From positions 384,001 through 448,000 of the forward strand of contig CM000152.2 of the NCBI GenBank assembly GCA_000004695.1: 64,000 nucleotides of DNA. The letters are read 5' to 3'. This stretch comes from Dictyostelium discoideum. Its lineage: Eukaryota. Shown piece after piece: positions 32,548 to 64,000 of the stretch; the first letter of the stretch is position 1, and every line of letters starts with the position of its first letter. A program made the position numbers and the translations under genes. The notes beneath the pieces were generated by a model. It saw only the letters and a program-made list of their open reading frames with translations, was not told where the DNA came from and searched no databases.

Positions 32548-35500
32548 ATGAAAGTTTTTTTATTAATATTATTGGTTTGTTTTATTTCTATTAATGTTGA
32601 TGCATTTCATAATTATAGAGCCAATTGTGATTACACCTCTTGTCCTAGAGAATTTAGTTGCCATGTAATCAATAGAAATATCACTGCTTGTTTACCAGAT
32701 AATGATATTTGTAGAAATTTTCCATGTCCACAGGGTAGTCATTGTTTCAATGGTGAAAGAGGTCCTGGTTGTTTTGATGATATCCATTATCCAAATTTAT
32801 GCTATGTAACCCATTGTTCATTGGATTATGATTGTAGAATGGTTAGAGGTGATCCAATATGTTTAAGATTTCAAAATGTTAATCCAACTAATACTCCAAC
32901 CCCCACCCCAGTTCATTGTACCACTTGTGCTGAACTAGCTTCTACTTGTCACTCTGATGGTTTAGTTTGTAGAACTATTGTTAATCCCAAGTGCCGTGGT
33001 AATTCAATAAAAGCTCTCGCCAAAACTAAAGCATGTTGTCCATATATTGCATTTTGTGATTCAAATTCAACCTCACACACAACTGGGGTACAAACAACAA
33101 CAGGAAGAAGTACGACTGGTGTACAATCAACAACTGGTAGGAGTACAACTGGTAGAAGTACAACTGGTAGAGGTACAACTGGTACAAGTACAACTGGTAC
33201 AAGTACAACTGGTACAAGCACAACTGGTAGAAGCACAACTGGTACAAGTACAACTGGTACAAGTACAACTGGTAGAAGTACAACTGGTACAAGTACAACT
33301 GGTACAAGTACAACTGGTACAAGTACAACTGGTACAAGCACAACTGGTACAAGTACAACTGGTACAAGCACAACTGGTACAAGTACAACTGGTACAAGTA
33401 CAACTGGTACAAGTACAACTGGTACAAGCACAACTGGTACAAGCACAACTGGTACAAGCACAACTGGTACAAGTACAACTGGTAGAAGCACAACTGGTAG
33501 AAGTACAACTGGTAGAAGTACAACTGGTAGAAGTACAACTGGTAGAAGTACAACTGGTAGAAGTACAACTGGTAGAAGTACAACTGGTAGAAGTACAACT
33601 GGTTCCGCTTCAACCACAGGAAGAGGTACAACTGGTTCTGCTTCAACCACAGGAAGAGGTACAACTGGTTCTGCTTCAACCACAGGAAGAGGTACAACTG
33701 GTGCTGCTTCAACCACAGGAAGAAGTACAACTGGTAGAGGTACAACTGGTAGAAGTACAACTGGTAGAAGTACAACTGGTTCCGCTTCAACCACAGGAAG
33801 AGGTACAACTGGTTCCGCTTCAACCACAGGAAGAAGTACAACTGGTTCCGCTTCAACCACTGGAAGAAGTACAACTGGTTCTGCTTCAACCACAGGAAGA
33901 GGTACAACTGGTTCTGCTTCAACTACAGGAAGAGGTACAACTGGTTCTGCTTCAACCACAGGAAGAGGTACAACTGGTTCTGCTTCAACCACAGGAAGAG
34001 GTACAACTGGTTCTGCTTCAACCACAGGAAGAAGTACAACTGGTGCTGCTTCAACCACAGGAAGAAGTACAACTGGTAGAGGCACAACTGGGGTACAATC
34101 AACAACTGGTGCTGCTTCAACCATAGGAAGAAGTACAACTGGTTCTGCTTCAACCACAGGAAGAGGTACAACTGGTGCTGCTTCAACCACAGGAAGAAGT
34201 ACAACTGGTGCTGCTTCAACCACAGGAAGAAGTACAACTGGTAGAGGTACAACTGGTGCTACTACTGCTAATTCAATAGGTGGTTTGACAACTGCTGGCG
34301 TCACAACAGTTGCTGGAGTAACTACTGCTACTGCCTCAACCGTTGCTGGAGTAACTACTGCCTCAACCGTTGCTGGTGTAACTACTAATTCAATAGGTGG
34401 TGTAACCACAGGAAGAGGTACAACTGGTGCTGCTTCAACTACAGGAAGAAGTACAACTGGTAGAGGTACAACTGGTGCTACTACTGCTAATTCAATAGGT
34501 GGTTTAACAACTGCTGGCGTCACAACAGTTGCTGGAGTAACTACTGCTACTGCCTCAACCGTTGCTGGAGTAACTACTGGTAGAGGTACAACTGGTTCTG
34601 CTTCAACCACAGGAAGAGGTACAACTGGTGCTGCCTCAACCGTTGCAGGAGTAACTACTGCTAATTCAATAGGTGGTATAACCACTGCTACTGCCTCAAC
34701 TGTTGCTGGAGTAACTACTGCTAATTCAATAGGTGGTTTGACTACTGCTGGCGTCACAACCGTTGCTGGAGTAACTACTGCCTCAACCGTTGCTGGAGTA
34801 ACTACTGCCTCAACCGTTGCTGGTGTAACTACTAATTCAATAGGTGGTGTAACCACAGGAAGAGGTACAACTGGTGCTACTACTGCTAATTCAATAGGTG
34901 GTGTAACCACAGGTAGAGGTACAACTGGTGCTACTACTGCTAATTCAATAGGTGGTTTAACAACTGCTGGCGTCACAACAGTTGCTGGAGTAACTACTGC
35001 TACTGCCTCAACCGTTGCTGGAGTAACTACTGCTACTGCCTCAACAGTTGCTGGAGTAACTACTGCTAATTCAATAGGTGGTTTGACAACTGCTGGCGTC
35101 ACAACAGTTGCTGGTGTCACTACTGTCAATTCAATAGGTGGTGCAACCACTGCCAATTCAATAGATGGTGCAACCACTGCCACTGCCTCAACCGTTGCAG
35201 GAGTAACTACTGCTAATTCAATAGGTGGTATAACCACTGCTACTGCCTCAACTGTTGCTGGAGTAACTACTGCTAATTCAATAGGTGGTGTAACCACAGG
35301 AAGAGGTACAACTGGTGCTGCTTCAACTACAGGAAGAAGTACAACTGGTAGAGGTACAACTGGTGCTACTACTGCTAATTCAATAGGTGGTTTAACAACT
35401 GCTGGCGTCACAACAGTTGCTGGAGTAACTACTGCTACTGCCTCAACCGTTGCTGGAGTAACTACTGCTAATTCAATAGGTGGTTTGACAACTGCTGGCG

Positions 35501-38500
35501 TCACAACAGTTGCTGGTGTCACTACTGTCAATTCAATAGGTGGTGCAACCACTGCCAATTCAATAGATGGTGCAACCACTGCCACTGCCTCAACCGTTGC
35601 AGGAGTAACTACTGCTAATTCAATAGGTGGTATAACCACTGCTACTGCCTCAACTGTTGCTGGAGTAACTACTGTCAATTCAATAGGTGTAACAACTGCT
35701 AGTTCAATAGGTGGTTTAACAACTGCTGGCGTCACAACCGTTGCTGGTGCCACTACTGCCAATTCAATAGGTGGTTTAACTACTGCTGGCATTACAACAG
35801 TTGCTGGTGCCACTACTGTCAATTCAATAGGTGGTTTGACAACTGCTGGCATCACAACAGTTGCTGGTGTCACTACTGCCAATTCAATAGATGGTGCAAC
35901 CACTGCCACTGCCTCTGCCTCAACCGTTGCAGGAGTAACTACTGCTAATTCAATAGGTGGTATAACCACTGCTACTGCCTCATCTGTTGCTGGAGTAACT
36001 ACTGCTTCAGTTGGAGGTTTGACAACTGCAGTTGCCTCTACAGTAGCTGGAGTAACTACTGCTGCTTCAATAGGTGGCGTAACCACTGCTACTGCCTCAA
36101 CCGTTGCTGGAGTAACTACTGCCTCAACCGTTGCTGGTGTAACTACTAATTCAATAGGTGGTGTAACCACTGCTACTGCCTCAACTGTTGCAGGTGTAAC
36201 TACTGCTGCTTCAATAGGTGGTTTAACTACTGCTGGTTTAACAACAGTTGCTGGATTTACCACTGCTGCCTCTGTTGGAGGTTTAACTACTGCTGGTGCT
36301 ACAACAGTTGCTGGTTCAACAACTTCCCCAGCATCAGTAGGTGACTTAACTACTGCTGGAGCAACAACAGTTGCTGGGGTTACCACTGCTGCTTCTGTTG
36401 GAGGTTTAACTACTGCTGGTGCTACAACAGTTGGAGGTTTAACTAATGCTAATTCAATAGGTGGTGTAACCACTGCTACTGCCTCAACGGTTGCTGGTGT
36501 AACTACTAATTCAATAGGTGGTGTAACCACTGCTACTGCCTCAACTGTTGCAGGTGTAACTACTGCTGCTTCAATAGGTGGTTTAACTACTGCTGGTTTA
36601 ACAACAGTTGCTGGAGTAACTACTGCTTCAGTTGGAGGTTTGACAACTGCAACTGCCTCTACAGTAGCTGGAGTAACTACTGCTGCTTCAATAGGAGGTT
36701 TAACTACTGCCGGCATTACAACAGTTGCTGGTTCAACAACAACAGTTGCTGGAGTCACCACTGCTGCTTCTGTTGGAGGTTTAACTACTGCTGGTGCTAC
36801 AACAGTTGCTGGAGTTACTACTGCTGCTTCTATTGGAGGTTTAACTACTGCTGGTGCTACAACAGTTGCCGGAGTTACTACTGCTGCTTCTATTGGAGGT
36901 TTAACTACTGCCAGTTTAACAACAGTTGCTGGTTCAACAACTTCCTCTTCATCAGTTGGTGGTTTAACTACTGCTGGAGCAACAACAGTTGCTGGAGTAA
37001 CTACTGCTGCTTCTGTTGGTGGTTTAACTACTGCTGGTATTACAACAGTTGCTGGAGTTACTACTGCTGCTTCTGTTGGAGGTTTAACTACTGCCGGTTT
37101 AACAACAGTTGCTGGTTCAACAACTTCCTCTTCATCAGTTGGTGGTTTAACTACTGCTGGAGCAACAACAGTTGCTGGAGTTACTACTGCTGGAGCAACA
37201 ACAGTTGCTGGAGTTACTACTGCTGCTTCTGTTGGAGGTTTAACTACTGCCGGTATTACAACAGTTTCTGGAGTAACTACTGCCAATTCAATAGGTGGCG
37301 CGAACACCGCTACCGCCGGTATAACTACTGCTGGAGCAACAACAGTTGCTGGAGTTACTACTGCTTCTGTTGGTGGTTTAACTACTGCCGGTATTACAAC
37401 AGTTGCTGGAGTAACTACTGCTGCTTCTGTTGGTGGTTTAACTACTGGTATTACAACAGTTGCTGGAGTTACTACTGCTGCTTCTGTTGGAGGTTTAACT
37501 ACTGCCGGTTTAACAACAGTTGCTGGTTCGACAACTTCATCTTCATCAATTGGAAGTTTGACTACGGCTGGTTTAACAACAGTTGCTGGAGTTACTACCG
37601 CTGCTTCTGTTGGAGGTTTGACAACTGCCGGTGTAACAACAGTTGCTGGCTCAACAACTTCCCCAGCATCAGTAGGTGGTTTAACTACTGCTACTGCCTC
37701 AACGGTCGCTGGAGTTACTACTGCCGCTTCAATAGGAGGTTTAACTACAGCTGGTATAACAACAATTGCTGGTTCAACAACTTCTGCTTCATCAGTGGGT
37801 GGTTTAACTACTGCTGGTTTAACAACAGTTGCTGGAGTTACTACTTCTGCTTCTGTTGGAGGTTTTACAACTGCCGGTATAACAACAGTTGCTGGTTCAA
37901 CAACTTCCCGAGCATCAGTAGGTGGTTTAACTACTGCTGGTGCTACAACAGTTGCTGGAGTTACTACTGCTGCTTCTGTAGGTGGTTTAACTACTTCTTC
38001 TTTGACAACAGTAGCTGGTGTCACTACTGGTACTGCTTCTGTTGGTGGTTTAACGACTGCTGGTGTAACTACCACCGCTGCTTCTGTTGGTGGTTTAACA
38101 ACTGCAGGTATTTCAACAATATCTGGTGTTACTACTGCCACAGCCTCAACGGTGGCAGGTATGACTACTGCCGCTGCTACATCAGGTGGTGTTTCAACTG
38201 CTACCGTATCATCAGGTGCCACAACTACTCAGGCATCAACACTATTTGGAATAACAACTGCTGCTTCTGTAGGCGCTTTAACAACAGCAGGTATGACAAC
38301 AGTCGCTGGTTTTACTACTGCTGCTTTTGTAGGTGGTTTAACAACTGCTGGTTTAACAACTGCTGGTGTAACTACTACCGCTGCTTCTGTTGGTGGTTTA
38401 ACAACTGCTGGTGTAACAACTACTGCTGCTTCTGTTGGTGGTTTAACAACTGCTGGTGTGACTACTACCGCTGCTTCTGTTGGTGGCTTAACAACTGCTG

Positions 38501-38805
38501 GTGTAACTACTACCGCTACTTCATCAGGTAGTGTTTCAACTGCTACCGTATCATCAGGTGCCACAACTACTCATGCTTCAACACTATTTGGAATAACAAC
38601 TGCTGCTTCAATAGGTGCTTTAACAACTGCAGGTATGACAACAGTAGCTGGTGTTACTACTGCTGCTTCTGTAGGTGGTTTAACAACTGCTGGTCTATCA
38701 ACAGTATCTGGTGTAACTACTTCTGCTTCTGTGGGTTCTTTAACAACTGCTGGTTCAACAACTCGTTCTGGTTCAACAACTCGTTCTGGTATAATAGGTG
38801 GTTAA
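32548..38805 (+). CDS. Giant secreted Cys-rich N-domain / Thr-Gly-rich tandem-repeat (mucin-like) protein, paralog B (2085 aa)
   Basis: Signal peptide MKVFLLILLVCFISINVDA. The N-domain NCDYTSCPREFSCHVINRNITACLPDNDICRNFPCPQGSHCFNGERGPGC...YPNLCYVTHC...MVRGDPICL...CTTCAELASTCHSDGLVCRTIVNPKC...ACCPYIAFCDSNSTS is ~60% identical to paralog A. About 1,900 aa of nested tandem repeats follow: TTG(T/R)S (15-nt units), GSASTTGRGTT (33-nt units) and ANSIGGLTTAGVTTVAGVTT (60-nt units). It is a single uninterrupted ORF. Confidence 0.75.
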   Translation: MKVFLLILLVCFISINVDAFHNYRANCDYTSCPREFSCHVINRNITACLPDNDICRNFPCPQGSHCFNGERGPGCFDDIHYPNLCYVTHCSLDYDCRMVRGDPICLRFQNVNPTNTPTPTPVHCTTCAELASTCHSDGLVCRTIVNPKCRGNSIKALAKTKACCPYIAFCDSNSTSHTTGVQTTTGRSTTGVQSTTGRSTTGRSTTGRGTTGTSTTGTSTTGTSTTGRSTTGTSTTGTSTTGRSTTGTSTTGTSTTGTSTTGTSTTGTSTTGTSTTGTSTTGTSTTGTSTTGTSTTGTSTTGTSTTGTSTTGRSTTGRSTTGRSTTGRSTTGRSTTGRSTTGRSTTGRSTTGSASTTGRGTTGSASTTGRGTTGSASTTGRGTTGAASTTGRSTTGRGTTGRSTTGRSTTGSASTTGRGTTGSASTTGRSTTGSASTTGRSTTGSASTTGRGTTGSASTTGRGTTGSASTTGRGTTGSASTTGRGTTGSASTTGRSTTGAASTTGRSTTGRGTTGVQSTTGAASTIGRSTTGSASTTGRGTTGAASTTGRSTTGAASTTGRSTTGRGTTGATTANSIGGLTTAGVTTVAGVTTATASTVAGVTTASTVAGVTTNSIGGVTTGRGTTGAASTTGRSTTGRGTTGATTANSIGGLTTAGVTTVAGVTTATASTVAGVTTGRGTTGSASTTGRGTTGAASTVAGVTTANSIGGITTATASTVAGVTTANSIGGLTTAGVTTVAGVTTASTVAGVTTASTVAGVTTNSIGGVTTGRGTTGATTANSIGGVTTGRGTTGATTANSIGGLTTAGVTTVAGVTTATASTVAGVTTATASTVAGVTTANSIGGLTTAGVTTVAGVTTVNSIGGATTANSIDGATTATASTVAGVTTANSIGGITTATASTVAGVTTANSIGGVTTGRGTTGAASTTGRSTTGRGTTGATTANSIGGLTTAGVTTVAGVTTATASTVAGVTTANSIGGLTTAGVTTVAGVTTVNSIGGATTANSIDGATTATASTVAGVTTANSIGGITTATASTVAGVTTVNSIGVTTASSIGGLTTAGVTTVAGATTANSIGGLTTAGITTVAGATTVNSIGGLTTAGITTVAGVTTANSIDGATTATASASTVAGVTTANSIGGITTATASSVAGVTTASVGGLTTAVASTVAGVTTAASIGGVTTATASTVAGVTTASTVAGVTTNSIGGVTTATASTVAGVTTAASIGGLTTAGLTTVAGFTTAASVGGLTTAGATTVAGSTTSPASVGDLTTAGATTVAGVTTAASVGGLTTAGATTVGGLTNANSIGGVTTATASTVAGVTTNSIGGVTTATASTVAGVTTAASIGGLTTAGLTTVAGVTTASVGGLTTATASTVAGVTTAASIGGLTTAGITTVAGSTTTVAGVTTAASVGGLTTAGATTVAGVTTAASIGGLTTAGATTVAGVTTAASIGGLTTASLTTVAGSTTSSSSVGGLTTAGATTVAGVTTAASVGGLTTAGITTVAGVTTAASVGGLTTAGLTTVAGSTTSSSSVGGLTTAGATTVAGVTTAGATTVAGVTTAASVGGLTTAGITTVSGVTTANSIGGANTATAGITTAGATTVAGVTTASVGGLTTAGITTVAGVTTAASVGGLTTGITTVAGVTTAASVGGLTTAGLTTVAGSTTSSSSIGSLTTAGLTTVAGVTTAASVGGLTTAGVTTVAGSTTSPASVGGLTTATASTVAGVTTAASIGGLTTAGITTIAGSTTSASSVGGLTTAGLTTVAGVTTSASVGGFTTAGITTVAGSTTSRASVGGLTTAGATTVAGVTTAASVGGLTTSSLTTVAGVTTGTASVGGLTTAGVTTTAASVGGLTTAGISTISGVTTATASTVAGMTTAAATSGGVSTATVSSGATTTQASTLFGITTAASVGALTTAGMTTVAGFTTAAFVGGLTTAGLTTAGVTTTAASVGGLTTAGVTTTAASVGGLTTAGVTTTAASVGGLTTAGVTTTATSSGSVSTATVSSGATTTHASTLFGITTAASIGALTTAGMTTVAGVTTAASVGGLTTAGLSTVSGVTTSASVGSLTTAGSTTRSGSTTRSGIIGG
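33090..38790. repeat. ~5.7 kb coding tandem-repeat array (15-, 33- and 60-nt unit families, near-identical copies) inside the 32548..38805 gene
   Basis: Dozens of consecutive copies of units such as actggtacaagtaca or ggtacaagtacaactggtagaagtacaact. The long antisense track ORFs over this region (32949..38222, 33026..33922, 33047..34126, 33923..34252, 38229..38564) are mirror artefacts of the repeat. Confidence 0.9.
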
Positions 38806-49983: not shown

Positions 49984-50725
49984 TTGATAATGCATTCAAA
50001 ATTTTTAATTGAAAAACCATATAAACATATGTTTGAAGATTATGTTGGGTCCTATGTAATTAGTAATGTTAAATCAATTGATATGTTGGATCTATTATTT
50101 AAAAATTTTTCAAACAAATTCTTTAAAGACAACAATCAAAATTGGCCATACTGCAATAGTATTGAAATTTTAAAACATTATGAAAAACTAATGGAATCAT
50201 TAGGTAGAAAATTCTCACTCAATTTTAATTATGGTAAACAAAATGAAATGTATCCAAAATTATTAAAAAGAGCTATTAGTAATCCGAAATTATATCAATG
50301 CCCAGGTTCCTCATCTTCCCCTTCAGCAACACCATCATCACCATCAAATGGAGAAAATCCATTAAAAGTTAATAATATTATTGTAAAGGAAAGAGCATTT
50401 TTATCATTATTAGAATTAAATTATTTTAAAACTATTAGATTTGGTAAAAAATTCCAATTTAACAAAAACTCTTTTAAAATTTCAAGATGGATCTCAGATA
50501 ATTGTATTTCAGATATATCAAAAATCACTTTTAATGAAGGTCATTTAACTAAAATTTATATTCAACTACCAAATATAAAATGCAATAAAAATGATCAAAA
50601 TGATGAAGGCTACTATGATTATGTTGAAGAATATATGGATTATGATAATGATTACGAAGAACAATTTTCTTATTTTTCCTCACATATTAATAATAATAAT
50701 GATAATAATAATGATAATAATAATG

Positions 50726-50797
<72 letters not shown>

Positions 50798-51322
50798 GTA
50801 ATAATAATAATAATAATGATAATATTGATAATATTGGTAAAAGATGATGGAAAGATTATAATTATCTTAAATGTTTATCAACTAATTGGAATATTAATTA
50901 ATTCCAACCGTTTAGATGATATATTTAAAATTCCTAAATTACATAAAATTAACGAGGTCCTTGATCATGCACATATATCATTACCATTAGTTGAAAGATT
51001 ATTACAAAATCCAATTAGTTCAGAAATTGGTTTCAGTGTTCAAACCTTTTTAAGGAATTTGGTCTCTTATGGTAATCTTCCAATTATTAAATTTTTAAAT
51101 TTAAATTATAGTCATATCTTCTTAAAAAAGGCAAGTAATGGACGTAATTTAGAAACAAAAGATTTAAAGAATTTACTTTTAATGGCAATTCGTTATGATT
51201 TTCCTCAAATCGCTGAAATTCTTTTTGTTTATGTAAAAGTAACTAGAGCTGAATTCAAAAAAGAAGTGCCACCCAAACAATTCTCGTTAGTAGCTGAACT
51301 CTTCTTTAGGGATTTAAATTAA
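49984..51322 (+). CDS. Hypothetical protein (probable 3' continuation of the 48237 gene), 2 exons: 49984..50836 and 50916..51322
   Basis: The track ORF is 49984..50847, with the first ATG at 49990. It ends ...NNDNIDNIG at a GTAAAA donor at 50837. A 79-nt AT-rich intron ends at the GTTTAG acceptor at 50913-50915. The frame then continues D-DIFKIPKLHKINEVLDHAHISLPLVERLLQNPISSEIGFSVQTFLRNLVSYGNLPIIKFLNLNYSHIFLKK...FRDLN* (the track ORF 50591..51322 frame). No recognisable domain. Confidence 0.5.
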
Positions 51323-51838
51323 AAAAACTAAAAATAAAAATAAAAATAAAAACAAAAATAAAACTAAAAATAAAAACAAAAATAAAAATAGTTCAGATCA
51401 CTCTTCTGTTATATATGATATCGACTTGGAATCATATAAAACATATTTTCTTTCCTTTTTTTTCCATGGAAAATTAATATTAAATATATATAAGTTTTTT
51501 GAAAAAAAAAAAAAAAAAAAAGAAATTATTTAATTCTGAATATATAAAAAAAAATCCAAGAACAAATGCCAAAATTAGTAAATATAATGGAGTTAGGCTA
51601 AGTTCCAGAAAAGAGATATCCCAAGTGAATGATCCTGAAAAAAATAGAAGGGCAAATCTTTACAATTCAAAGGATTGCAATTAATAATGGTGGATATTGA
51701 TTTTAAAATAATTTATTAAATAAATTATTTAATCTTTTTTTTTTTTATTTAAAATTTAATTTTATTATTAATTATTATTATTATTATTAATTATTATTTT
51801 TAAAATAAATCAAATTATTTTATTTTTTATATTTTTTT

Positions 51839-53333
51839 TTAATTAAATCTTTTAACTTGAGCATCATGTAATGAATGGTATAACATATGAACCTGATGTT
51901 CTAAACCTCTAACTCTTGCAACATCAACCATTCTTTCATCAGTAATTAAATCATGACCACATTCTAAAATTTGAACAATACCAGAGATATAAATTTCTGA
52001 AGCGATACGAGCAGCTTCACGACGGGCCAACTCTCTAATTAAATCTTGTTTTGTATGATAATGATCTTTAATTCTTTGAGAACATGATTGAAATAAAGGA
52101 TGAAGTTTAAAATAATCAGAATAGAAGCCTTCACGAGTTTGATGATAAATTCTTTCCAATTCTACATCCCATTTACTTAGATCCCTTTCGATTGTATTTG
52201 TAGATTCGTATAGCCTAGTTACTTCATTACAAACCGATACGAATCTATCTCTTAATTCTCTAACTGAACGTTTCTCTATATTTAAAAATGCAATTGCCGA
52301 TTCAACTTTTCTTTTTCTTTTTTCATATTCTTCCAATTGCTTGGTTTCTTTTGATTTAATTTTACGTTTTTTAACAATAACTTCAACTTGTTCATCGATT
52401 GCCAATTTTTGATTCATCAACTCTTGAAGGAAATTTATAATTGTACTACCAACTTGTTCACAATCTGCAACTATTTTTGCATTTTGTTTCAATTCTAAAT
52501 TCACTTGTTTCTTTGTTATTCGTTTTTCAATTAATTGATGAATTTCTGTACTTAAATTATGAAGATGTGATGTTAATAATACCCTATTTTTAAATTGAAT
52601 TCTTTCAATTCTATATTTTGCTGTTGCTAAAACTTCTGAAATCTTTTGATTTAAATCTTCTTCATTAATAAAATTACCAATATTTAAATTTAAATTTTGT
52701 GCTAAATTATTTAATTGTTCTTTTTTATTAAAATTTGGTGATTGTTGTTGTTGGGGTTGGGATTGGGGTTGGGGTTGTTGTTTATATGATCCACCACTTG
52801 AAGATAATTGAATTGGATTTTGAATTGGGTTTTGATTTGGTGATGATATTAAATTACCACAACTATTATATTTACCAATTGGAGGTTTATGATTTGTTGT
52901 TGATGGTGATGGTGGTAATTCATTATAACTATTATTAATACTATTATTATTATTATTACTACTGCTACTACTGCCATTTACTATTGGACTATTACTATTA
53001 TTATTTATATTAAATTTATTTTGAGGAATTGGTATTTGTGGAGAAGAAATTGAAGCAGAATATGGACTTTGATTACCTTTTTTAATGATATTATTATTTA
53101 TAGAAGAGCTATTATTAATTATTGGTGATGATGTCACAATATTGGAAGGATTTTTTAACATTGAAATCTTTTTTTTCTTTAATTCTAAATTTGCTTTCAT
53201 TTCATTTAATTGCTCATCAAGTGATTGAATTTGTTGTGTTTGATCCCTCATTTCTTGTTTAACTTTTTGATAATCTTGAATAATTGCAACTATTTTTTCT
53301 TTTTCAATTGAAATTTCATTATCATTATTATTT

Positions 53334-53412
<79 letters not shown>

Positions 53413-54592
53413 TAGTACTGTTATTGTTAACAGTATTATTATTATTATCATTATTAATTATATTGGTGTTATTATTGTTTTTATTATTATTAGTATTGTT
53501 AGTATTATTAGTATTATTATTAGTGTTATTAGTATTATTATTATTATTAGTGTTATTATTTTTAGTATTATTAATAATTGAAGATGATGAAAGTGTTCTT
53601 GAAATTTGTAATAATGGAGTTTGATGATTTGAAATTATTAATTGAGAAGGTGGTGATTTATAATCCAAAGTTGGATCAATATCAATATCATTACAATTTT
53701 CATAATCAATAGTATTATTAATAATATTATTTTCTTTATTTGTTTGAGTCAATTTTAATTTTTCTTCAATTTCTTGTAAGAATTGATCAGAAGATAAACC
53801 ACCATTTAAAGATGAAACACTAATTGTTCTGCCTAAAACGGCACGATTATCAAAACTATTATTTAATGAAGAACCCAAAAGTGATGGACTTTTTGAATTG
53901 TAATTATTTTTTTCCTGTTTTAATAAAAGATGTTGTTTAATCATCCAATTTTCTTCGTTTCCATTTTGTTGTGATTGTTGAAGATTATTATTATTATGAC
54001 TTTTATTTAATTCATAATCTTCTTCTTCATCACAATCATCATACTCATCATCGTATTCATCATTATTTAAATTATTATTAGAATCAATTAATGTTTTGTT
54101 ATTACTATCATGTATTTGATTTTGTTGTTGTTGTTGTTGTAATTGTTGTTGATAAATTCCAATAATTTCTCTACTTAATGGTCCAATTACAGATTTTCTT
54201 AAAACTTCACGAAGATCTGTTATTTCATCTATTAAATGATTACTTTTTATATCATTTTTGTGAAATGGGTTTGTAATACCAACATTGGCAAAAGAAGAAG
54301 CACTACTAACAGTAGAATAGGTAATAAAACTTGTTGCTTTGGTATTGTTAGATAAATCATTTGTGCTTTGTGTCGATTGTGTCGTTGGTTGAGATTGGGA
54401 CTTTTGTAATCCATTATTATTATTACTATTATTATTTTGATTCTCTTTTTTACTGTTTTCAATATTCTAAAATAAAAAAAAATAAATATTTTAGTTAGTT
54501 GGAATAATAGATTGATTGTATAAAAAATAAATTAAAAAAAAATTAATTGAATAAAAAATAAATAAATAGAAATGTACTTTTGAAGAAATCAT
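51839..54592 (-). CDS. Hypothetical coiled-coil protein with Asn/Gln-rich N-terminal half, 2 exons: 54578..54592 (5-codon exon MISSK) and 51839..54466
   Basis: I checked that the minus-strand frame is open from 54466 down to the track ORF start at 53944. An upstream in-frame TAG coincides with a TTTTATTTTAG acceptor at 54468-54467. A plausible exon 1, ATGATTTCTTCAAAA plus a GTACAT donor, lies at 54592..54578, giving a 111-nt intron. The C-terminal half is heptad-rich (...KKRKIKSKETKQLEEYEKRKRKVESAIAFLNIEKRSVRELRDRF...) and ends ...ILECGHDLITDERMVDVARVRGLEHQVHMLYHSLHDAQVKRFN. The exon-1 assignment is tentative. Confidence 0.55.
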
Positions 54593-55644
54593 TTGATGGA
54601 TTAAATTTAAATTATTTTTAAAGACTTTTTATTTATTATTATTATTTTTTTTTTTTTTTTTAAGATACTTTTACAGTAAAAAATAAATAAAATAATTGGA
54701 AATAATAAACCAAAAAACAAATAAATAAAAAATAATAATAATAAAATAAAAATAAAGTAATTTAAAAGGAATTTGATGTATTACAAAAAAAAATTATAAA
54801 AAAAAATTTAAAAAAAAAAATAATAATAATAAACAAATAGGAAAGGAAAATAGTGGGACAAAAAAAAAAAAAAAAAATGAATAAAAAAATAAATTAAAAA
54901 AGTAATAAAAGATAAAAATAAAAAAAATAAAAAAAATCATTTAAATCATTTTTAAATAATAATATAATAATTTTTTAAAAAAAAAAATATATATATATTA
55001 AAAAAATATTTAATCTACAAAAACACACACCTAACACACTTTAAAAAAAACAACCAAGACAAATACTAACTTTTTTCTGTCTCTTTGTGGGTTTATTTTT
55101 ATCTTTTTATTTTTTTTTTTTTTTTAATCTTAGAAAAAAATAACGAAATCAATCAAAAAAAAAAATTAAAAATTAAAAATAAAAAATAAAAATAAAAAAT
55201 AATATTTGTCAAACAATTGTATTCAATGTATGGTTTAAAAATAACTATAAAAAAAAAAATAAAAATAATAAAAAATCATTGAATAAAAAAAAAAAAAAAA
55301 TAATAAAAAATTTTTTCATAAAAGTTTTAAACGGTTAATATTTTTTTAAAAATTTTTAAGATATTTTTCGATTCATTTGAAAAAAAAAAAAAAAAATGGA
55401 AAATATCTTTGTGGGGGGTCATTCTGCTAATTTTCATTATTTTATTTTTTTTTTTTTTTATTTTCAATTTTTTTATCATAAGATTCCTAAAAAACACAAT
55501 TTTTTTTTGTTTGTTTTCTCACATACATTATTTTTTTTTTTTTTTTTTTTTTTTCTTTTCTTTTTTTCCAAATTATTATTAATTGATTCAACATCAATTT
55601 AGTATGTTTTTAATCAAATAATAATAATTATTATTTATTAATAT

Positions 55645-56608
55645 ATGAATTTAAAAGAAGCCATTTCAAATAATTTTATTTTAAATTCTCTTTTAAATCA
55701 ACAACCAACACACCAACTACAACAAAATGAATCGATAGAAATAATTGATAAAAACAAAGATAAAGAAAACGAACAATCATTGTCAGAATTACAATGTGAA
55801 TATTCAATATGTGCAATGTTTTCAATTTACTATCCAATTATTAAAAATTTTCAAAATTTTTCAATAAATAATGAAGAAAATAATAATAATAATAATAATA
55901 ATAATAGTCAATCATCAAAGAATGAAGATGAAACCTTTATACCAAAACTTGTAAATCCAATATCTTGGGGTGAACTAACAGATTCAGAATCAATTTATTC
56001 AACATCGCCTTCCTCCTCGATGTATTCATTTTCAGATATTGACGATACCAATAATAACAATAATAATAATAATAAAAATAATAATTCAAGCCAAGACAAT
56101 GATAAAAATAATAATAATAATAATAATAAAAGTAAAAAACAAAAAAATAAAGGAATTAAAAAACTTTTTATTGGTGGTATCAATTTTGATGATTTAAAAG
56201 GGAATGAACAATTAAAACAAATTAGAATACAAAAATTAATTCACTTATTTCAATCATTTGGTTCGGTCCTTAAAACTTCTTATCATTGGGATAAAGGGTA
56301 TGTAGTTTGATAAATAAATAAAATAAATGAAAAAAATAAATGAAAAAAAAAAATAAAAAAACTAAAATTTAATAAATATTTAAAAAATAAAATGCAGATA
56401 TTTTTTTATTAGTTATTCAAATAATAAAGTATCACAAACTGTAGTTGATTCATTTTCAACAACTAAAAAAAGACAAAAATATATTGATAAAATTAAAGAT
56501 TCTTTAAAAGATTCTGAAAAATGTGCAACCCCTCAATTAAACTTTTATGTTAGATTCCCAAATAACTATTCTTCTGTTAGTGCTAAAAACAGTGGTAATC
56601 AAAAATAA
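55645..56608 (+). CDS. Hypothetical Asn-rich protein with possible RRM-like segment, 2 exons: 55645..56297 and 56413..56608
   Basis: The track ORF ends ...KKLFIGGINFDDLKGNEQLKQIRIQKLIHLFQSFGSVLKTSYHWDKG, and a GTATGT donor follows at 56298. A 115-nt intron ends at the TTTATTAG acceptor at 56411-56412. Only with a phase-2 join is the downstream frame open, reading YSNNKVSQTVVDSFSTTKKRQKYIDKIKDSLKDSEKCATPQLNFYVRFPNNYSSVSAKNSGNQK*. The RNP2-like LFIGGI motif is only suggestive. Confidence 0.5.
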
Positions 56609-57219
56609 AAACAATGACAAATTAGTTAAAAAAAAAAAATGTATAAAAAAAATAAAACAAAAACCTTAAATATCTATTTCATAAATAGCACAATATTTGC
56701 ACTTCTTTTTTTATTTTTATTTTTTTTTTTTTTTTTTTTGAAATTAAAATTTCAAATAATTGTTTAAAAATAATTTCTAATAATAAAAATAAAATGGTTC
56801 GTATGTGAAAAGAAATTTGGGTGTTTGGTATAGAAATTTTTTTTTTTTTTTTTTGAAATAATATTATTCTTACAAACTTTTTTTCTTTGTTATGTTTGAA
56901 TGATGGATTTATAATAGTTTGAAAAAAAAAAAAAAAAAAAAAAAAGAAAATGAATTTATATATATATTTTTTTTTTTAAATATTTGCTTTATTTATTGTG
57001 ACATTCAATAATTCATGATTATTTTTTTTTTTATTTTTTTATTTTTTTTTTTAGAATTTTTTTTTTTTTTTATGATTTTATTATTTTAAAGTTTATTGAA
57101 AAACTAAAAAACTTTTTGGTGGTTGATATTGATACTATTATAAAAAAAAGGGGTGTGTGATTGATAAATTAAGAGTTTGGGTGGGAGGGAGGGATGAGTG
57201 TTGATGAAATACAATTTGT

Positions 57220-57976
57220 TTATAAAATGTTGCAACCACCTGAACTTTTCTTCTTTTTGCTGAGTGGTGGGTTGATAACGGCTCTAATGGCTTCATCAAA
57301 AACAGTCTTGAGACCTTTTTGGGTAAGAGCTGAACATTCAAGATATTTAACAGCGTTGATTTCTTTCATTTTAGCTAAACCTTGTTCGTATGAAATTGGG
57401 TAGAGTTTCTTTTCTTTTAATCTATCTTGAGTTTCCTTATCTTCACGCATATCCAACTATAATAATAATAATAATAAAAAGAGAGAGAGAGAGAGGAAAA
57501 AAAAAAAAGGAATTACGAAAAAGTTAGAAATTAATAAAAAAATTTAAAAAATAATAATAATTTTTTTTTACTTACTTTAGTACCAACTAAAATGATTGGA
57601 ACATTTGGTGCATGATGACAAATTTCTGGATGCCATTTACCATTAACATTTTCAAATGATGATGGTGAAATGATAGAGAAACAAATTAAGAAAACATCAG
57701 TTTGTGGATATGAGAGTGGACGTAAACGATCATAATCTTCTTGACCAGCAGTATCCCATAAGCCGAGATTGATTGGTTTACCATCAACCATTACATTAGC
57801 GCTGTAGTTATCGAAAACTGTTGGGATATATTCACCTGGGAATGCATTGGTGGTGTAAGAAATTAAAAGACAGGTTTTACCTACAGCACCATCACCGACA
57901 ACGACACATTTAATTGCTATATTTTAATTAAATAAAAATTAAAAAAAAATAAAAATTATTAGTATATCAATAAAAC

Positions 57977-58007
<31 letters not shown>

Positions 58008-58067
58008 CCCTCTTCACTTTTTTTTTTTTTTTTTTCTAAATATACAAAACTAAAATTTACCTTGCAT
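57220..58067 (-). CDS. Rac-family small GTPase (Rac1-like), 3 exons: 58061..58067 (7-nt microexon ATGCAAG), 57576..57916, 57220..57456
   Basis: The spliced product reads [116 protein letters not shown] | [78 protein letters not shown]. It is ~85% identical to human Rac1. It has a polybasic tract followed by a CAAX box (CNIL). The donors are GTAAAT and GTAAGT; the acceptors are ATATAG and TTATAG. Confidence 0.9.
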
Positions 58068-59105
58068 TTTATTATTGTTTTATGTTATTAAAAAATTTAT
58101 TTATATGAAAAAAATCTACTACTCAGTGATAAAATAATAATAAAAAAAATTAGTATTTATTATTATTTAAATTTTAATTTTTTTTTTTTTTTTTTTAATA
58201 AAAAAAAATATATATATATATTTATAATATTATTTAATAAAAAAATACTTACTACTACAGGTTGATTACTACTAATTCCACAATTTGATATATAACAATA
58301 AATTTTTTTTTTATTTTTATATATAAATATTTTTATATGGGGGTTGAGAGAGAAAGAATTGAAAAATAATAATAAAAAAAAAAATAAAAAAAAAAAAAAA
58401 ATTTAAAAAAAAAAAAAAATTTGAAAAAAAAAAAAAATAAAAAAAAAAAAAAAATAAAAAAAAATAAAAAAAAATAAAAAAAAAAAAAAGTTAGTAGATT
58501 TTTTTTGGTGGTTTTAATGTGAAAATAGAGATTAATCCAAAAAAAAAAAAATAATAAATGAAATAAAATAAAAAAAATATGGATTACAATATTATATTAT
58601 TATTTTAATTGTTGAAGAAAATAAAATAAAAATTATTTATTATTTTATTTTGCTATATTTTATTTTAAAATAGAGTGTGGGAAGAGAAAAAAAAAAAATA
58701 AAAAAAAAAAATAAAAAAAAATTTAAAATTGAAGTTTGAGTTTCAAATAAAATGGTTTTGGGTGCGGATGATAATAAAAAAAAAAAAAAAGAGAAAAAAA
58801 TAATAAAGATAAAAATGGAAAATAGAAAAATATCAACATTTTATTTTATCCTATAATTGTTATTCTTTTTATTATTGTTATTATTATTATTATTTTTTTT
58901 TTTTTTTATTCTTTTATAATTATTTATTTATTTTTAATTTATAGTTATCATTATTACTATTTTTATTTTTATTAAAAAAAACAAATATTCAAAAGAAAAA
59001 AAATAAAATAAAATAAAAAAAGACAATATAAATATAAATAAAAAAATATAAACTTACATACAAAGGGTTTATTGGTTAATTATATATATTTTTAAAAAAA
59101 TTCAC

Positions 59106-59140
<35 letters not shown>

Positions 59141-60472
59141 TCACGATTTCAAAAATTTTTAAAAAAAAAAAATAAAAAAAAAAAAAATAAAAAAAAAATT
59201 AAATTTTTTTTTAAAAAAAATAAAAAAAAAAAAAAAAGAAAAAAAGGTGGCCATCAATTATAATAATCAAAGTTGAAAAAAAAAAAAAAAAAAAAAAAAA
59301 TAATAAAAAATAATAAACAAAATAAAAAACAAAATTAATAAAACTTTAATTCCTTTTAAAATTATTTACCTTTTTTTTTTTATTTATTAATTTATTAATA
59401 TTAATTTATTTATTTATTAATTTTTTTTTATTTTTTTTTATTATTATTTGTTTAATAAATTATTTGTTTTTTGAAATGAGAATAAAAATTTTTTTTTTAT
59501 TTTCAATTTATAAAAAATTTTATTATTGAACTTTTATTCTATTTATAGATGACTGAAAAAAATTTGTTCTTTGAAATTTTTAACACAATATTTTTTCGTT
59601 TAAAAAAAACTCCCAAAAAAAAAAATCAAAAAAAATTATAAAAATAAAAAAAATCAAAATCTTTGATTCTTTGATTGTGGTATTAAGATAGAGATGAAAT
59701 GAAAATATTAATTTTTTTTTTTTTTTTTTTAATATTATTAAATTATTTTTTTTTTTGATTAAAAATTTTTTTTTTTTTTATTTTATTTTTTTAATTTTAT
59801 TTTTTAATTATTTTTTAATTATTTTTTTAATTATTTTTTAATTATTTTTTAATTATTTTTTAATTATTTTTTTACCAGATCTTTGCCATAAAGTAAAAAA
59901 AAAATATAAATAATTTTTAATAAAAATAAAAATTGAAATCCACTGTCATGTCATGTCATTAAATATCAACTAACAATTTATTATTATTTAGTTTTTTTTT
60001 TTTTTTAAATGAAATAAAATAAAAGGGATATTATTTTCACTTATCCTTTTATATTTATTTTTTTTTTCAACTTTTTTTTTATAAAAATAAAAAAAAAAAA
60101 TAAAATAAAATCATAATATCTATTATTTGAACATCAAAAAAAAGTATCAAAAAAAAAAAAAAAAAAAAAAAATGTGAAATAATATAAAAGATAGAATTAT
60201 TTTATAATTAATGTGAATAAACAAATAAAATTAAAATCAATTTTATTTTTTTTTTATTTTTTATTGTTTTGCTTAATTTGGGTAAAAATAATTAAAATGC
60301 AAATCAAATAGATAATATTTAAAAATCAGAATAAAAATTAACCACCAAAATAAGAATAGATTTTTTTTTTTTTTTTTTTATTTCATTGAAAACTTTTACT
60401 TTTTTTTTTTTTAAATTTTTTTTTGTATTAGGACTTTAAAATTAGTTTTATTTTTTTTTTTTTTCTGATGTC

Positions 60473-60511
<39 letters not shown>

Positions 60512-60625
60512 TAAAAAATTTAAAGAAAATTAAAATAAAAAAAAAAATCAAAGAATAAAAGATTTACCAAAAATAACAACCACAACAACAGAAACAACAA
60601 CGACAACAACCAACAGGAGTGCATC

Positions 60626-61492
60626 ATGTGTGGAATATCGGTAATCATAAATGGAATTAAAATTTTAGAACCAATAAATAAAAATGGTCAAAATAAGGAT
60701 TTAAAAGAAACTATAACAACATCAACATCAACACCAACACCAATTGCAATTGGTGATTATTATACAATTAAAAATGATATTGAATCAAGATTAATCAATA
60801 GAGGACCAGATTCAATAAAAAGTAAATTGATTGAAATTAAATGTTTTCAAAAAGATATTGATAAAGAGATTAGCATAAGTATGGAATTAATATCATCAGT
60901 TCTCGGACTTAGAGGACCATTAACAATTCAACCATTAACTGATGAAAATAATGGTAATACATTATTATGGAATGGTGAATTATTTGGTGGTTATGAAATT
61001 GGTATTCATGATAATGATACTTGTTTATTATTACATTTATTATCAAAAATTAATGAAAATGAAAGTGAAAATCAAGAAATCAATGAAAATGAAATTGAGA
61101 GAGAATTAATTGAAATTATGTTGAAAATAAAAGGGCCATTCGCATTTTTATATTGGCAAGAGAAAAAAAGAAAACTTTGGTTTGGTAGAGATGTATTAGG
61201 TAGAAGAAGTTTATTAGTAAATAATGAAACCATTATCAATGATAAACCATCACTAATCATATCGTCAATGGGTTCATTTCCAAATGGTATCGATGATTCA
61301 ATAAGGTTACCAAAATGGGATGAAATTAACACATTTGGTTTATTTTCAATCCATTTTCCAAAAATTATTGAAACTAATATAATTCATTTTAAAATCCATC
61401 CATGGGATATTTCAAATATTAATTTAAATATTGGTATGATTTCATTAGATTATGATAATGATAATGATAATGAAGAAGAATCAAATACAAAT

Positions 61493-61523
<31 letters not shown>

Positions 61524-62299
61524 AAGAAATTGAAGAAATTGAAGGAAATAATATTGACCAATTACATTTTTATCCATTTGGTAGAAGAGAGAAATTAGAT
61601 ATAGAAAAAGGTGAATGGAGTGAAAAGGTTTTTAATGACTATGTAAATGGATTTTATGAGGCAATTAGTGATTCAATTAATGTTAGATTAAATAATTTAC
61701 CAATTGCTTCATTGGAAATACCAGATTTAATTAGAGCACCGTTTTTACAAGAGAAACCATTACCTTTGGTTTCTAGATTAGGTATTTTGTTTAGTGGTGG
61801 TTTGGATTCAATGGTTTTAGCCGCAATGTCAAATAAACATATGGAAACACCTGATGAACCAATTCATTTGATTAATGTTGCTTTTGGTGATGATGATTCA
61901 CCATTTGAAGAATATGATAAGGTACCAGATAGAAAAGCAGCAATCTCTGGTTTAAAGGAATTACAAACTATTGCACCAAATAGACAATGGAAATTAATTA
62001 AAGTAAATGTTGGTACAAAAGAAATGGAATGGGCTAAAAAAATAGTTTATCAATTATCTTATCCTGCTATTACAATTATGGATATGACAATTTGTTTAGC
62101 ACTTTGGTTCGCTGGTAGAGGTGAAGGTATATTACATGGTGAGGAGTTAAAAGGTCAAGGTCAACAACAACAGCAACGTTATATGACAACTTGTAAAGTT
62201 TTATTAATGGGTAGTGGTGCAGATGAACAGTTAGCAGGTTATTTAGACATAAATCAGCATTTCAACGTGGTTCTTGGCCAATACTTCGAGCAGAGTTGA
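60626..62299 (+). CDS. asnsd1: Asparagine synthetase domain-containing protein 1 (ASNSD1) homolog — N-terminal Ntn glutamine-amidotransferase domain + PP-loop ATP pyrophosphatase domain. The reading frame breaks at 62299 although the homology continues
   Basis: The N-terminus is MCGISVII, with the catalytic Cys2 of class II amidotransferases, followed by RGPDS. The Asn-synthetase PP-loop is LGILFSGGLDSMVLAAM. Further on come ...VLLMGSGADEQLAGY. After AGY the ORF runs on as LDINQHFNVVLGQYFEQS*, which is not conserved, while the conserved continuation lies in other frames (see 62242..62858). Confidence 0.85.
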
Positions 62300-62858
62300 A
62301 TAAAGATTTTAATAGGATTTGGAAAAGAAATTTAGGTAGAGATGACCGTGTTTTAAGTAGTAATAGTCGTGTATCCAAGATTTCCATATTTGGATGAATC
62401 ATTGATTTCCTATTTAAATGGTATTGAGTTACCTTATATTTGTGATTTATCTTTACCACAAGGTACAGGTGATAAAAGGATTTTACGTGAAGTTGGTCGT
62501 AAATTAGGTTTAACCGAATCAACTAAACTTAATTAAAAAAGCAATTCAATTCGGCTCAAGATCTTCAAAACAATTGAATAAAAATGTTCCAGCAAGAATC
62601 ACTCAAAAATGTGGTAAAGATGTTTTTTCATTTACAACTCCAATTTATGATCCACTTCAAGATCCTGGTTATGAAGCTCTTCAAAAACAAAAATTAAAAC
62701 AAAAAATGAGTTTGGAAAGAAAGGAAAAAAAAAATAAAGAAAAATCTGAAAAAATTGAAAAGAAAATTAATTTTAAAAACCAACAAGAAAAACAAAAACA
62801 ACAACCAAATGATGATGAAAATATATTAAGGAAAAAAGAAGTAAAAAATTGTAATTAA
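62242..62858 (+). pseudogene. asnsd1: 3'-terminal ~200 codons of the ASNSD1 homolog, encoded in three different frames (at least 3 single-nt frame changes)
   Basis: Segment 1 (frame +2 relative to the main ORF): (F/S)RHKSAFQRGSWPILRAELNKDFNRIWKRNLGRDDRVLSSNSRV matches human AGYSRHRVRFQ...SRNLGRDDRVI. Segment 2 (back in the main frame): PRFPYLDESLISYLNGIELPYICDLSLPQGTGDKRILREVGRKLGLTESTKLN matches human RFPFLDENVVSFLNSLP...GIGEKLLLRLAAVELGL. Segment 3 (frame +1; track ORF 62574..62858): KKAIQFGSRSSKQLNKNVPARITQKCGKDVF... matches human KRAMQFGSRIAKME. The frame switches fall near 62246 (a T3 run), ~62375 (within gtatccaagattt) and ~62530 (aattaaaaaag). Confidence 0.6.
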
Positions 62859-63654
62859 AATTTATGGAATAAAATATTAATTTTTTTTATTTAAATTGAT
62901 ATTGTAATAAAATTGAAACCACAAAAAATAGTTTCTTTGTCCAAAAACACTATTTTATTAATTGAAAGACCTTTCTTCCCTTTTTTTCTATTTTACCATT
63001 TTTTGTAATTATTTTTTATTTTGAAGAACAACAATAGGGAATATATTTTATATTAAAAATAGATTTTAATAAAAAAAAAAAAATTTATTGGATTTGTTTA
63101 TTTTTTTTTTTTATATTTATATAATATAAATTTTTATTTTCAATTATTTATTTTTAAATGAGTGTGCAGAATGAAAAAATAAAAATTAAAAGTTTTTACC
63201 CTTTTTTTTTTTATTTTTTATTTTTTTATTTTTTTTTTAATTTATAAATCAAAAAAATAAATGAATTAAATCTGGATTATTTAAATTCTAAAAATAAAAT
63301 TTTGTTTAAAAAAATAAAAAAAATATTTTTCCAATAAGTTTGCTAATCAAAAAAAAAAAAAAAAAAATTTTTTTTATATTTTGGCCAACTTTTTAATCAA
63401 AAAACGAAAAAAAAGTTTTCTCTTTTTTTTTTTTTTTCATTTTTTCACTTTTTTATTTTTTCACTTTTTTATTTTTCATAATATCTTGAAATAATATTAT
63501 TCATATTCACTCGTAATAATACATATAAATTGATATCAATCAGAAAAACAAACAAACAAACAAACAAGCAAATAAACAAACAAAAAAAACGAACAAACAA
63601 AAAACGAACAACAATAAAATAAATAATAAATAAATAAATATATATAAATAAAAA

Positions 63655-63804
63655 ATGAATAATTTAATTCGTAGATCATTATTAAATCAAATAAATTTAA
63701 ATAGAGCAGGTCAAAAATTTAGACAATCAATAGGACTTGCCAGAAGTGGTAATGAAGATGGTCCACTTCATGATTTACCAGATTTTCATTTTGCTAGTAT
63801 GAAT
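63655..63804 (+). CDS. Small ORF (49 aa) or first exon of a gene running off the window end, hypothetical
   Basis: The ATG at 63655 reads MNNLIRRSLLNQINLNRAGQKFRQSIGLARSGNEDGPLHDLPDFHFASMN*. The N-terminus is basic and hydroxylated, like a mitochondrial presequence. A possible GTATGA donor at ...TTTGCTA|GTATGAATT could instead make this exon 1. It is below the track's size cutoff. Confidence 0.25.
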
Positions 63805-63819
63805 TAAATCACACACATA

Positions 63820-63981
<162 letters not shown>

Positions 63982-64000
63982 TTTGTATATTTTTTTTTTT

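Follow-up and report, generated by a model that had tools for sequence, protein, structure and literature searches.

The three-frame split of the Dictyostelium discoideum ASNSD1-like gene DDB_G0278193 very probably stems from base-calling errors in the AX4 reference sequence

The stretch of Dictyostelium discoideum DNA analysed here (64,000 nucleotides of CM000152.2, positions 384,001 to 448,000; hereafter the window) carries at its 3' end, in AT-rich dictyostelid DNA, the ASNSD1 ortholog DDB_G0278193 (Table 1). Its main ORF of 557 aa begins with MCGIS and includes the motif LFSGGLDS. The original prediction held that this ORF stops 18 codons after the conserved LAGY and that the remaining conserved sequence is distributed over the +2, the main and the +1 frame, and both features were recovered by three-frame translation of 62100-62900 and mapping of the junctions. 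The exact bases were then taken from DNA comparison with relatives, which also bore out the expectation of at least three single-nucleotide frame changes within ~300 bp; the three that were located span 289 bp from first to last. Only the first coincides with a short T run (TTT for TTTT), as had been noticed, and the intact reading at this site is LAGY-F-RHK, while the other two are lone extra Ts. Four substitutions in the same 289-base patch had escaped the original prediction and were found by the DNA comparison.

The ASNSD1 ortholog is followed at 63655-64000 by a gene for an MRPL52-family mitochondrial ribosomal protein, assigned by Pfam at the corresponding locus of an AX2-like assembly. 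Intron 1 of this gene, which begins at ~63795, harbours a (TTA)n microsatellite that exceeds 150 bases and extends to the window end. Farther upstream, a 2085-aa ORF on the plus strand (32548-38805) lies opposite a 1757-aa ORF on the minus strand (32949-38222), an arrangement common in Dictyostelium genes that carry long low-complexity codon repeats. A small upstream ORF like that of the mammalian gene was looked for in the ORF list: between 59000 and the ATG at 60626, the plus-strand ORFs of at least 30 aa were only two, of 30 and 32 aa, and neither lies in the immediate leader.

Table 1. The ASNSD1 ortholog in the window: reading frames, deviations from the AX2-like assembly and the wild-strain contigs, and introns of the public AX4 gene model
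Feature	Position	Strand	Remarks
ASNSD1 ortholog DDB_G0278193, full span	60626..62858	+	2233 nt in the window
Main ORF as found in the window, 557 aa	60626..62299	+	coordinate mod 3 = 2; correct up to LAGY, then 18 out-of-frame codons and TGA
LAGY	62231-62242	+	last correct residues of the main ORF
Conserved block RHKSAFQRGSWPIL..NLGRDDRVLSSNSRV (also NLGRDDRVLSSN)	62245..62373	+	mod 1, i.e. +2/-1 frame
Conserved block PRFPYLDE..LPQGTGDKRILREVGRKLGLTESTKL	62375..62530	+	mod 2, main frame again
C-terminal block IKKAIQFGSRSSK / IKKAIQFGSRSSKQLNKNVPARITQKCG to stop	62532..62858	+	mod 0, +1 frame; DNA identical to the AX2-like assembly
Frame change 1, one T missing	62241/62242	+	window TTT, AX2-like assembly and wild-strain contigs TTTT
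Substitution G for A	62288	+	R for Q
Substitution G for A	62298	+	synonymous
Substitution T for A	62367	+	S for R
Frame change 2, extra T	62372	+	window CGTGTATCC, relatives CGTG-AACC (RRE-PRF)
Substitution T for A	62374	+	V for E
Frame change 3, extra T	62529	+	window AAACTTAATT, relatives AAAC-TAATT (K L I K)
Artificial intron 1 of the AX4 model	62193..62366	+	174 nt, GT..AG, GC 34%; deletes 58 conserved codons including MGSGADEQLAGY
Artificial intron 2 of the AX4 model	62499..62541	+	43 nt, GT..AG; deletes RKLGLTESTKLIKKA

Joining of the three blocks yields a conceptual protein of 743 aa with two recognizable domains. Pfam Asn_synthase matches residues 385-427 (E=3e-13, 50.6 bits, cut-off 21), a segment that includes LFSGGLDS; this motif is invariant in an alignment of eight dictyostelid sequences, and the joined protein thus has the SGGxDS PP-loop of ATP pyrophosphatase domains. 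GATase_7 is matched closely above its threshold (E=1.6e-5, 25.4 bits, cut-off 25), and M1-C2-G3, with the cysteine that characterizes class-II (Ntn) amidotransferases, is invariant in the same alignment. In a search of a protein collection, the named animal and plant matches were ASNSD1 or CG17486 (E 1e-60 to 1e-82), orthology being judged here by one-way similarity. DDB_G0278193 has been described as the ASNSD1 orthologue before, and AX2 knockouts of the gene are viable and dedifferentiate like the wild type (PMC7190356). Since the joined protein shares 97-99% identity along its whole length with intact D. discoideum proteins of 737-743 aa and matches ASNSD1 of many eukaryotes, the blocks downstream of LAGY do not represent chance similarity. 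The intact allele comprises 2232 nt, i.e. 743 codons plus stop, and has no intron. We conclude that the gene is most likely an ordinary, intact and intronless ASNSD1 ortholog. Its sequence predicts a class-II glutamine amidotransferase domain at the N-terminus, with Cys2 as putative nucleophile, and an ATP-pyrophosphatase domain of the asparagine-synthase type that contains the SGGLDS loop.

The joined protein was also used to collect relatives. The search returned the public AX4 protein (P0003, 671 aa), three intact proteins of other D. discoideum assemblies (P0002, P0122 and P0121; 737-746 aa), one from the Logan contigs (P0001, 742 aa), the proteins of D. citrinum (780 aa) and D. firmibasis (750 aa), and those of more distant dictyostelids. 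In the alignment the relatives read through ...MGSGADEQLAGYFRHKSAFQRGSWPILQAEL...SSNRREPRFPYLDE...TESTKLIKKAIQFGSR, with the exception of the public AX4 and D. purpureum models, from which the same two segments are missing. A comparison with the orthologous locus of other strains and species had been suggested as a check of the split, and it gave one clean frame in the AX2-like assembly, the wild strain, D. citrinum, D. firmibasis, D. purpureum and Heterostelium. The wild D. discoideum haplotype is represented by five ~2.5-kb Logan contigs from as many independent sequencing runs (L001-L005), and these show the AX2-like state at seven of seven sites, in a haplotype that is clearly distinct by several SNPs and by in-frame repeat-length differences elsewhere in the gene. 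The proteins of two additional D. discoideum assemblies and those of D. citrinum, D. firmibasis and Heterostelium likewise have the AX2-like state, and D. purpureum has it at the DNA level: in its genome (GL871104.1, L008 1501-3579) the gene is one uninterrupted ORF of 692 codons that includes both segments missing from the model. The window is hence the only deviant sequence, and it deviates at all seven sites. The affected residues 523-645 are the best-conserved part of the protein, with 87% amino acid identity to D. purpureum vs 64% elsewhere and a dN/dS of ~0.1 in this comparison.

Two of the length differences in the wild haplotype (L001) deserve mention in their own right. A 12-nt in-frame insertion at 62829-62832 produces ILKEEVEEKEVK in place of ILRKKEVK, and the ACA/threonine repeat at 61487-61501 is shorter by 15 nt; both are ordinary repeat-length polymorphisms. 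The products of the frameshifted ORFs (557, 94 and 55 aa) and the AX4 model retrieved no independent contig from the Logan set, a result that is uninformative, the set holding no contigs of the AX4/AX2 haplotype for this gene or for a control gene.

The closest comparison is provided by GCA_054883475.1, an independent chromosome-scale D. discoideum assembly (chromosome CM142509.1, 6.43 Mb). Its locus tags and those of its sibling assemblies belong to a project in which nine wild isolates and one laboratory strain, AX2-214, were sequenced by Nanopore and Illumina (Holland et al., PMC12745789). From this description and from the near-identity to the window, the assembly is most likely AX2-214 itself. 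The comparison covers window positions 1-21949 and 50604-64000. In this assembly the gene is a single-exon, uninterrupted ORF encoding a protein of 743 aa (P0121, KAM9948755.1), which carries the markers of the AX4 haplotype (Y50, the T10 repeat, S in DDDSPFEE and the ILRKKEVKNCN end) and differs solely inside the patch.

Along 50604-64000 (13.4 kb, L006) the two records differ by 18 events. Eleven of them lie outside the gene: AT-rich spacers account for five substitutions, long homopolymers for five differences in length, and an A-rich run for one indel of 2 bases (AT). The remaining seven fall within 62241-62529, as one missing T, two extra Ts and four substitutions. Elsewhere in the gene, over 1,944 bases, there is no difference. 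Against a background of 35 events in 35 kb, the Poisson probability of at least seven events in 289 bp is 2.6e-8. The interval 1-21949 (L007) contributes 24 events, most of them lengths of homopolymers or microsatellites, and here the window is always the longer sequence, save for two offsetting 6-base events in one TTA repeat. A second cluster occupies 75 bp at 620-694, where in the window T replaces C at 620 and A at 630, 632 and 674, and one A is added at 694. This segment is non-coding, with a tyrosine-phosphatase gene on one side and a MatE transporter gene on the other, and probably represents a further low-quality stretch of the reference. Patches of this kind, with clustered and mostly T-biased discrepancies, thus belong to the record and are not peculiar to the ASNSD1 gene.

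The long A/T homopolymers form a class of their own. Where they differ in length, the window is longer by 1 to 28 bases, e.g. at 409, 499, 6484, 18801, 20332, 20581, 20728, 55531, 59106, 60451 and 60475. Homopolymer length is a known weak point of Nanopore assemblies, and the shortfall looks like systematic compression in the newer assembly, not like biology.

AX2 and AX4 are both derived from NC4. By our own estimate, which assumes ~1e5 generations, the real divergence of two laboratory lineages of this origin should amount to about a hundred substitutions genome-wide. The observed density is ~15 substitutions in 35 kb between the AX4 reference and the AX2-like assembly, and because this is far above the real divergence, most of the differences must have arisen as errors in either of the two records. 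For the patch in the gene, the polarity given by the other strains and species points to errors in the AX4 reference. Resequencing of three AX4 mutation-accumulation lines yielded 1,917 candidate differences from the reference, 1,916 of them shared and attributed to reference errors or to differences of the founder clone, and a nuclear mutation rate of 2.9e-11 per site per generation (Saxer et al., PMC3466296). Departures from the reference are thus frequent, and genuine new mutations very rare events.

Three causes of the split had been offered originally, namely recent pseudogenisation, local sequence error and, as the least likely, recoding, with no preference between the first two. We favour the local sequence error, since the discrepancies are clustered in 289 bp of an otherwise identical gene, since the window is the odd sequence at seven of seven sites, and since a similar patch exists in non-coding DNA. 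Pseudogenisation is less likely, and recoding is unsupported, none of the relatives being shifted. The frame changes would, with high probability, be base-calling errors in a 289-base low-quality patch of the Sanger AX4 chromosome 3 reference of 2005, and we infer from the compared sequences that real AX4 DNA does not contain the lesions. Seven errors in 289 bases, namely a dropped T, two inserted Ts and four miscalls, would break the reading frame three times, on paper only, and the annotators' gene predictor would have bridged the breaks with two artificial GT..AG introns, so that a database protein of 671 aa resulted. Our literature search for a published account of frameshifts in DDB_G0278193, or for lists of AX4 reference errors, retrieved only the table entry on the knockout, and the gene is not mentioned in the supplements of PMC5282741.

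The main competitor, which we consider unlikely, is that the lesions are real in AX4 or in its parent AX3. A single complex and clustered mutational event, for instance by error-prone repair or mutagen-induced co-mutation, would then have inactivated a dispensable gene after the separation of AX2 from AX3/AX4 and created a very young, strain-specific pseudogene. The changes are, after all, present in the deposited sequence, and the comparison strain AX2 is a sister lineage and not AX4. AX3 was obtained by chemical mutagenesis, and such treatment can cluster mutations, but the spectrum found here (relative to the ancestral state, two A to G changes, two A to T changes and three indels of a single T) does not resemble that of nitrosoguanidine, whose signature is G:C to A:T. 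Nor are the lesions spread over the gene as in a decaying pseudogene: all seven differences lie within 289 bp (P=2.6e-8), vs none in the other 1,944 bp, and a similar patch is found in unrelated non-coding DNA at 620-694. While loss of the gene in AX4 would be tolerable, as it is non-essential in AX2 (PMC7190356), independent hits are implausible at a rate of 2.9e-11, and ~1,900 differences from the reference are common to the resequenced AX4 lines (PMC3466296). If the lesions were nevertheless true in AX4, the reference strain would be a natural ASNSD1 null, and AX2 and AX4 would differ in ASNSD1 function, which would matter to laboratories comparing both strains.

The original prediction had allowed that an annotated intron structure with canonical splice sites could explain the frame switches. 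An annotation of this kind does exist: the AX4 model (P0003, DDB_G0278193, 671 aa) corresponds exactly to the window minus the two GT..AG segments listed in Table 1, and their removal bridges the shifts and gives one frame together with the exact database protein. This match identifies the window as the AX4 reference. However, these introns are artificial, since they delete conserved codons that are read straight through in relatives. Together they would remove 72 residues, the most conserved ones of the family, which are colinear in the single exon of the relatives. Real introns would be expected to be AT-rich and to contain nothing colinear with the orthologs, but the GC content of the first one exceeds the gene average (27.7%) and is far higher than that of the upstream spacer (10.6%). 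Typical Dictyostelium introns are longer than the 43 nt of the second one. For these reasons, i.e. the loss of conserved codons, the continuous reading in relatives and the exon-like GC content, we dropped splicing as an explanation and regard it as very improbable. The D. purpureum model DICPUDRAFT_55929 (P0011, 619 aa) lacks the same two segments, and its bogus introns were apparently copied by homology-guided annotation.

The least credible explanation, to which we give almost no weight, is ribosomal frameshifting at three sites (-1, +1 and +1): the three blocks do join into a full-length conserved protein, and the third site, CTT AAT TAA, would formally permit a +1 slip from CUU to UUA before the stop, but none of the sites occurs in the near-identical sister strain, in the wild strain or in seven further proteins or loci of dictyostelids, the sequence at the first site, T TAT TTA (G GTT ATT TAG), does not form an X XXY YYZ heptamer, a serial triple shift would give a negligible yield, and four substitutions in the same patch would be left unexplained. 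Recoding was discarded on the ground that no relative has the shift sites. That the lesions are real in AX4 and the gene is rescued by serial frameshifting is less probable again by a wide margin.

With the sequence error as the preferred reading, there is nothing unusual in the biology: all independent sequences available show a conserved, intact gene. The three-frame split is then most likely not a real biological feature but a curation issue for DDB_G0278193/Q54YK5 and for DICPUDRAFT_55929. In the public AX4 protein (DDB_G0278193, XP_642197.1, UniProt Q54YK5; 671 aa), 72 residues are missing from the best-conserved part of the synthetase domain, a loss that results from the two artificial introns bridging the probable sequence errors, and the correct product is most probably the 743-aa protein KAM9948755.1 of the AX2-like assembly. 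The D. purpureum model of 619 aa omits the same segments, although the genome contains the clean ORF of 692 codons. Both models are misleading for alignments, for structure prediction and for the design of knock-ins.

Compared with the ASNSD1 family, the protein shows the usual two-domain layout, a class-II glutamine amidotransferase with Cys2 and an Asn_synthase domain with SGGLDS, and the C-terminal motifs LAGY, NLGRDDR, RFP(Y/F)LDE and (I/M)QFGSR are all found. It departs from the family by low-complexity inserts specific to dictyostelids (poly-T and N/D/E-rich), by a lysine-rich tail and, in this record only, by a 3' third that lies in three frames. The need of a frame change for a full-length conserved protein is shared with the programmed ribosomal frameshifting of antizyme (+1), of Ty1 (CUU-AGG-C, +1) and of viruses (X XXY YYZ, -1). 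In contrast to those systems, neither the sites nor the two-frame arrangement are conserved in relatives, no canonical slippery heptamer is present at the -1 site, and three serial shifts would be combined with unrelated substitutions. The closest parallel is offered by reference indel errors bridged by artificial introns: single-base indels and miscalls are clustered in a short patch, and the short GT..AG 'introns' have an exon-like composition and cost the protein conserved residues. The D. purpureum model P0011 shows the same omission, and, confirmation on AX4 DNA aside, we see no difference of substance between the split ASNSD1 ortholog and such cases.
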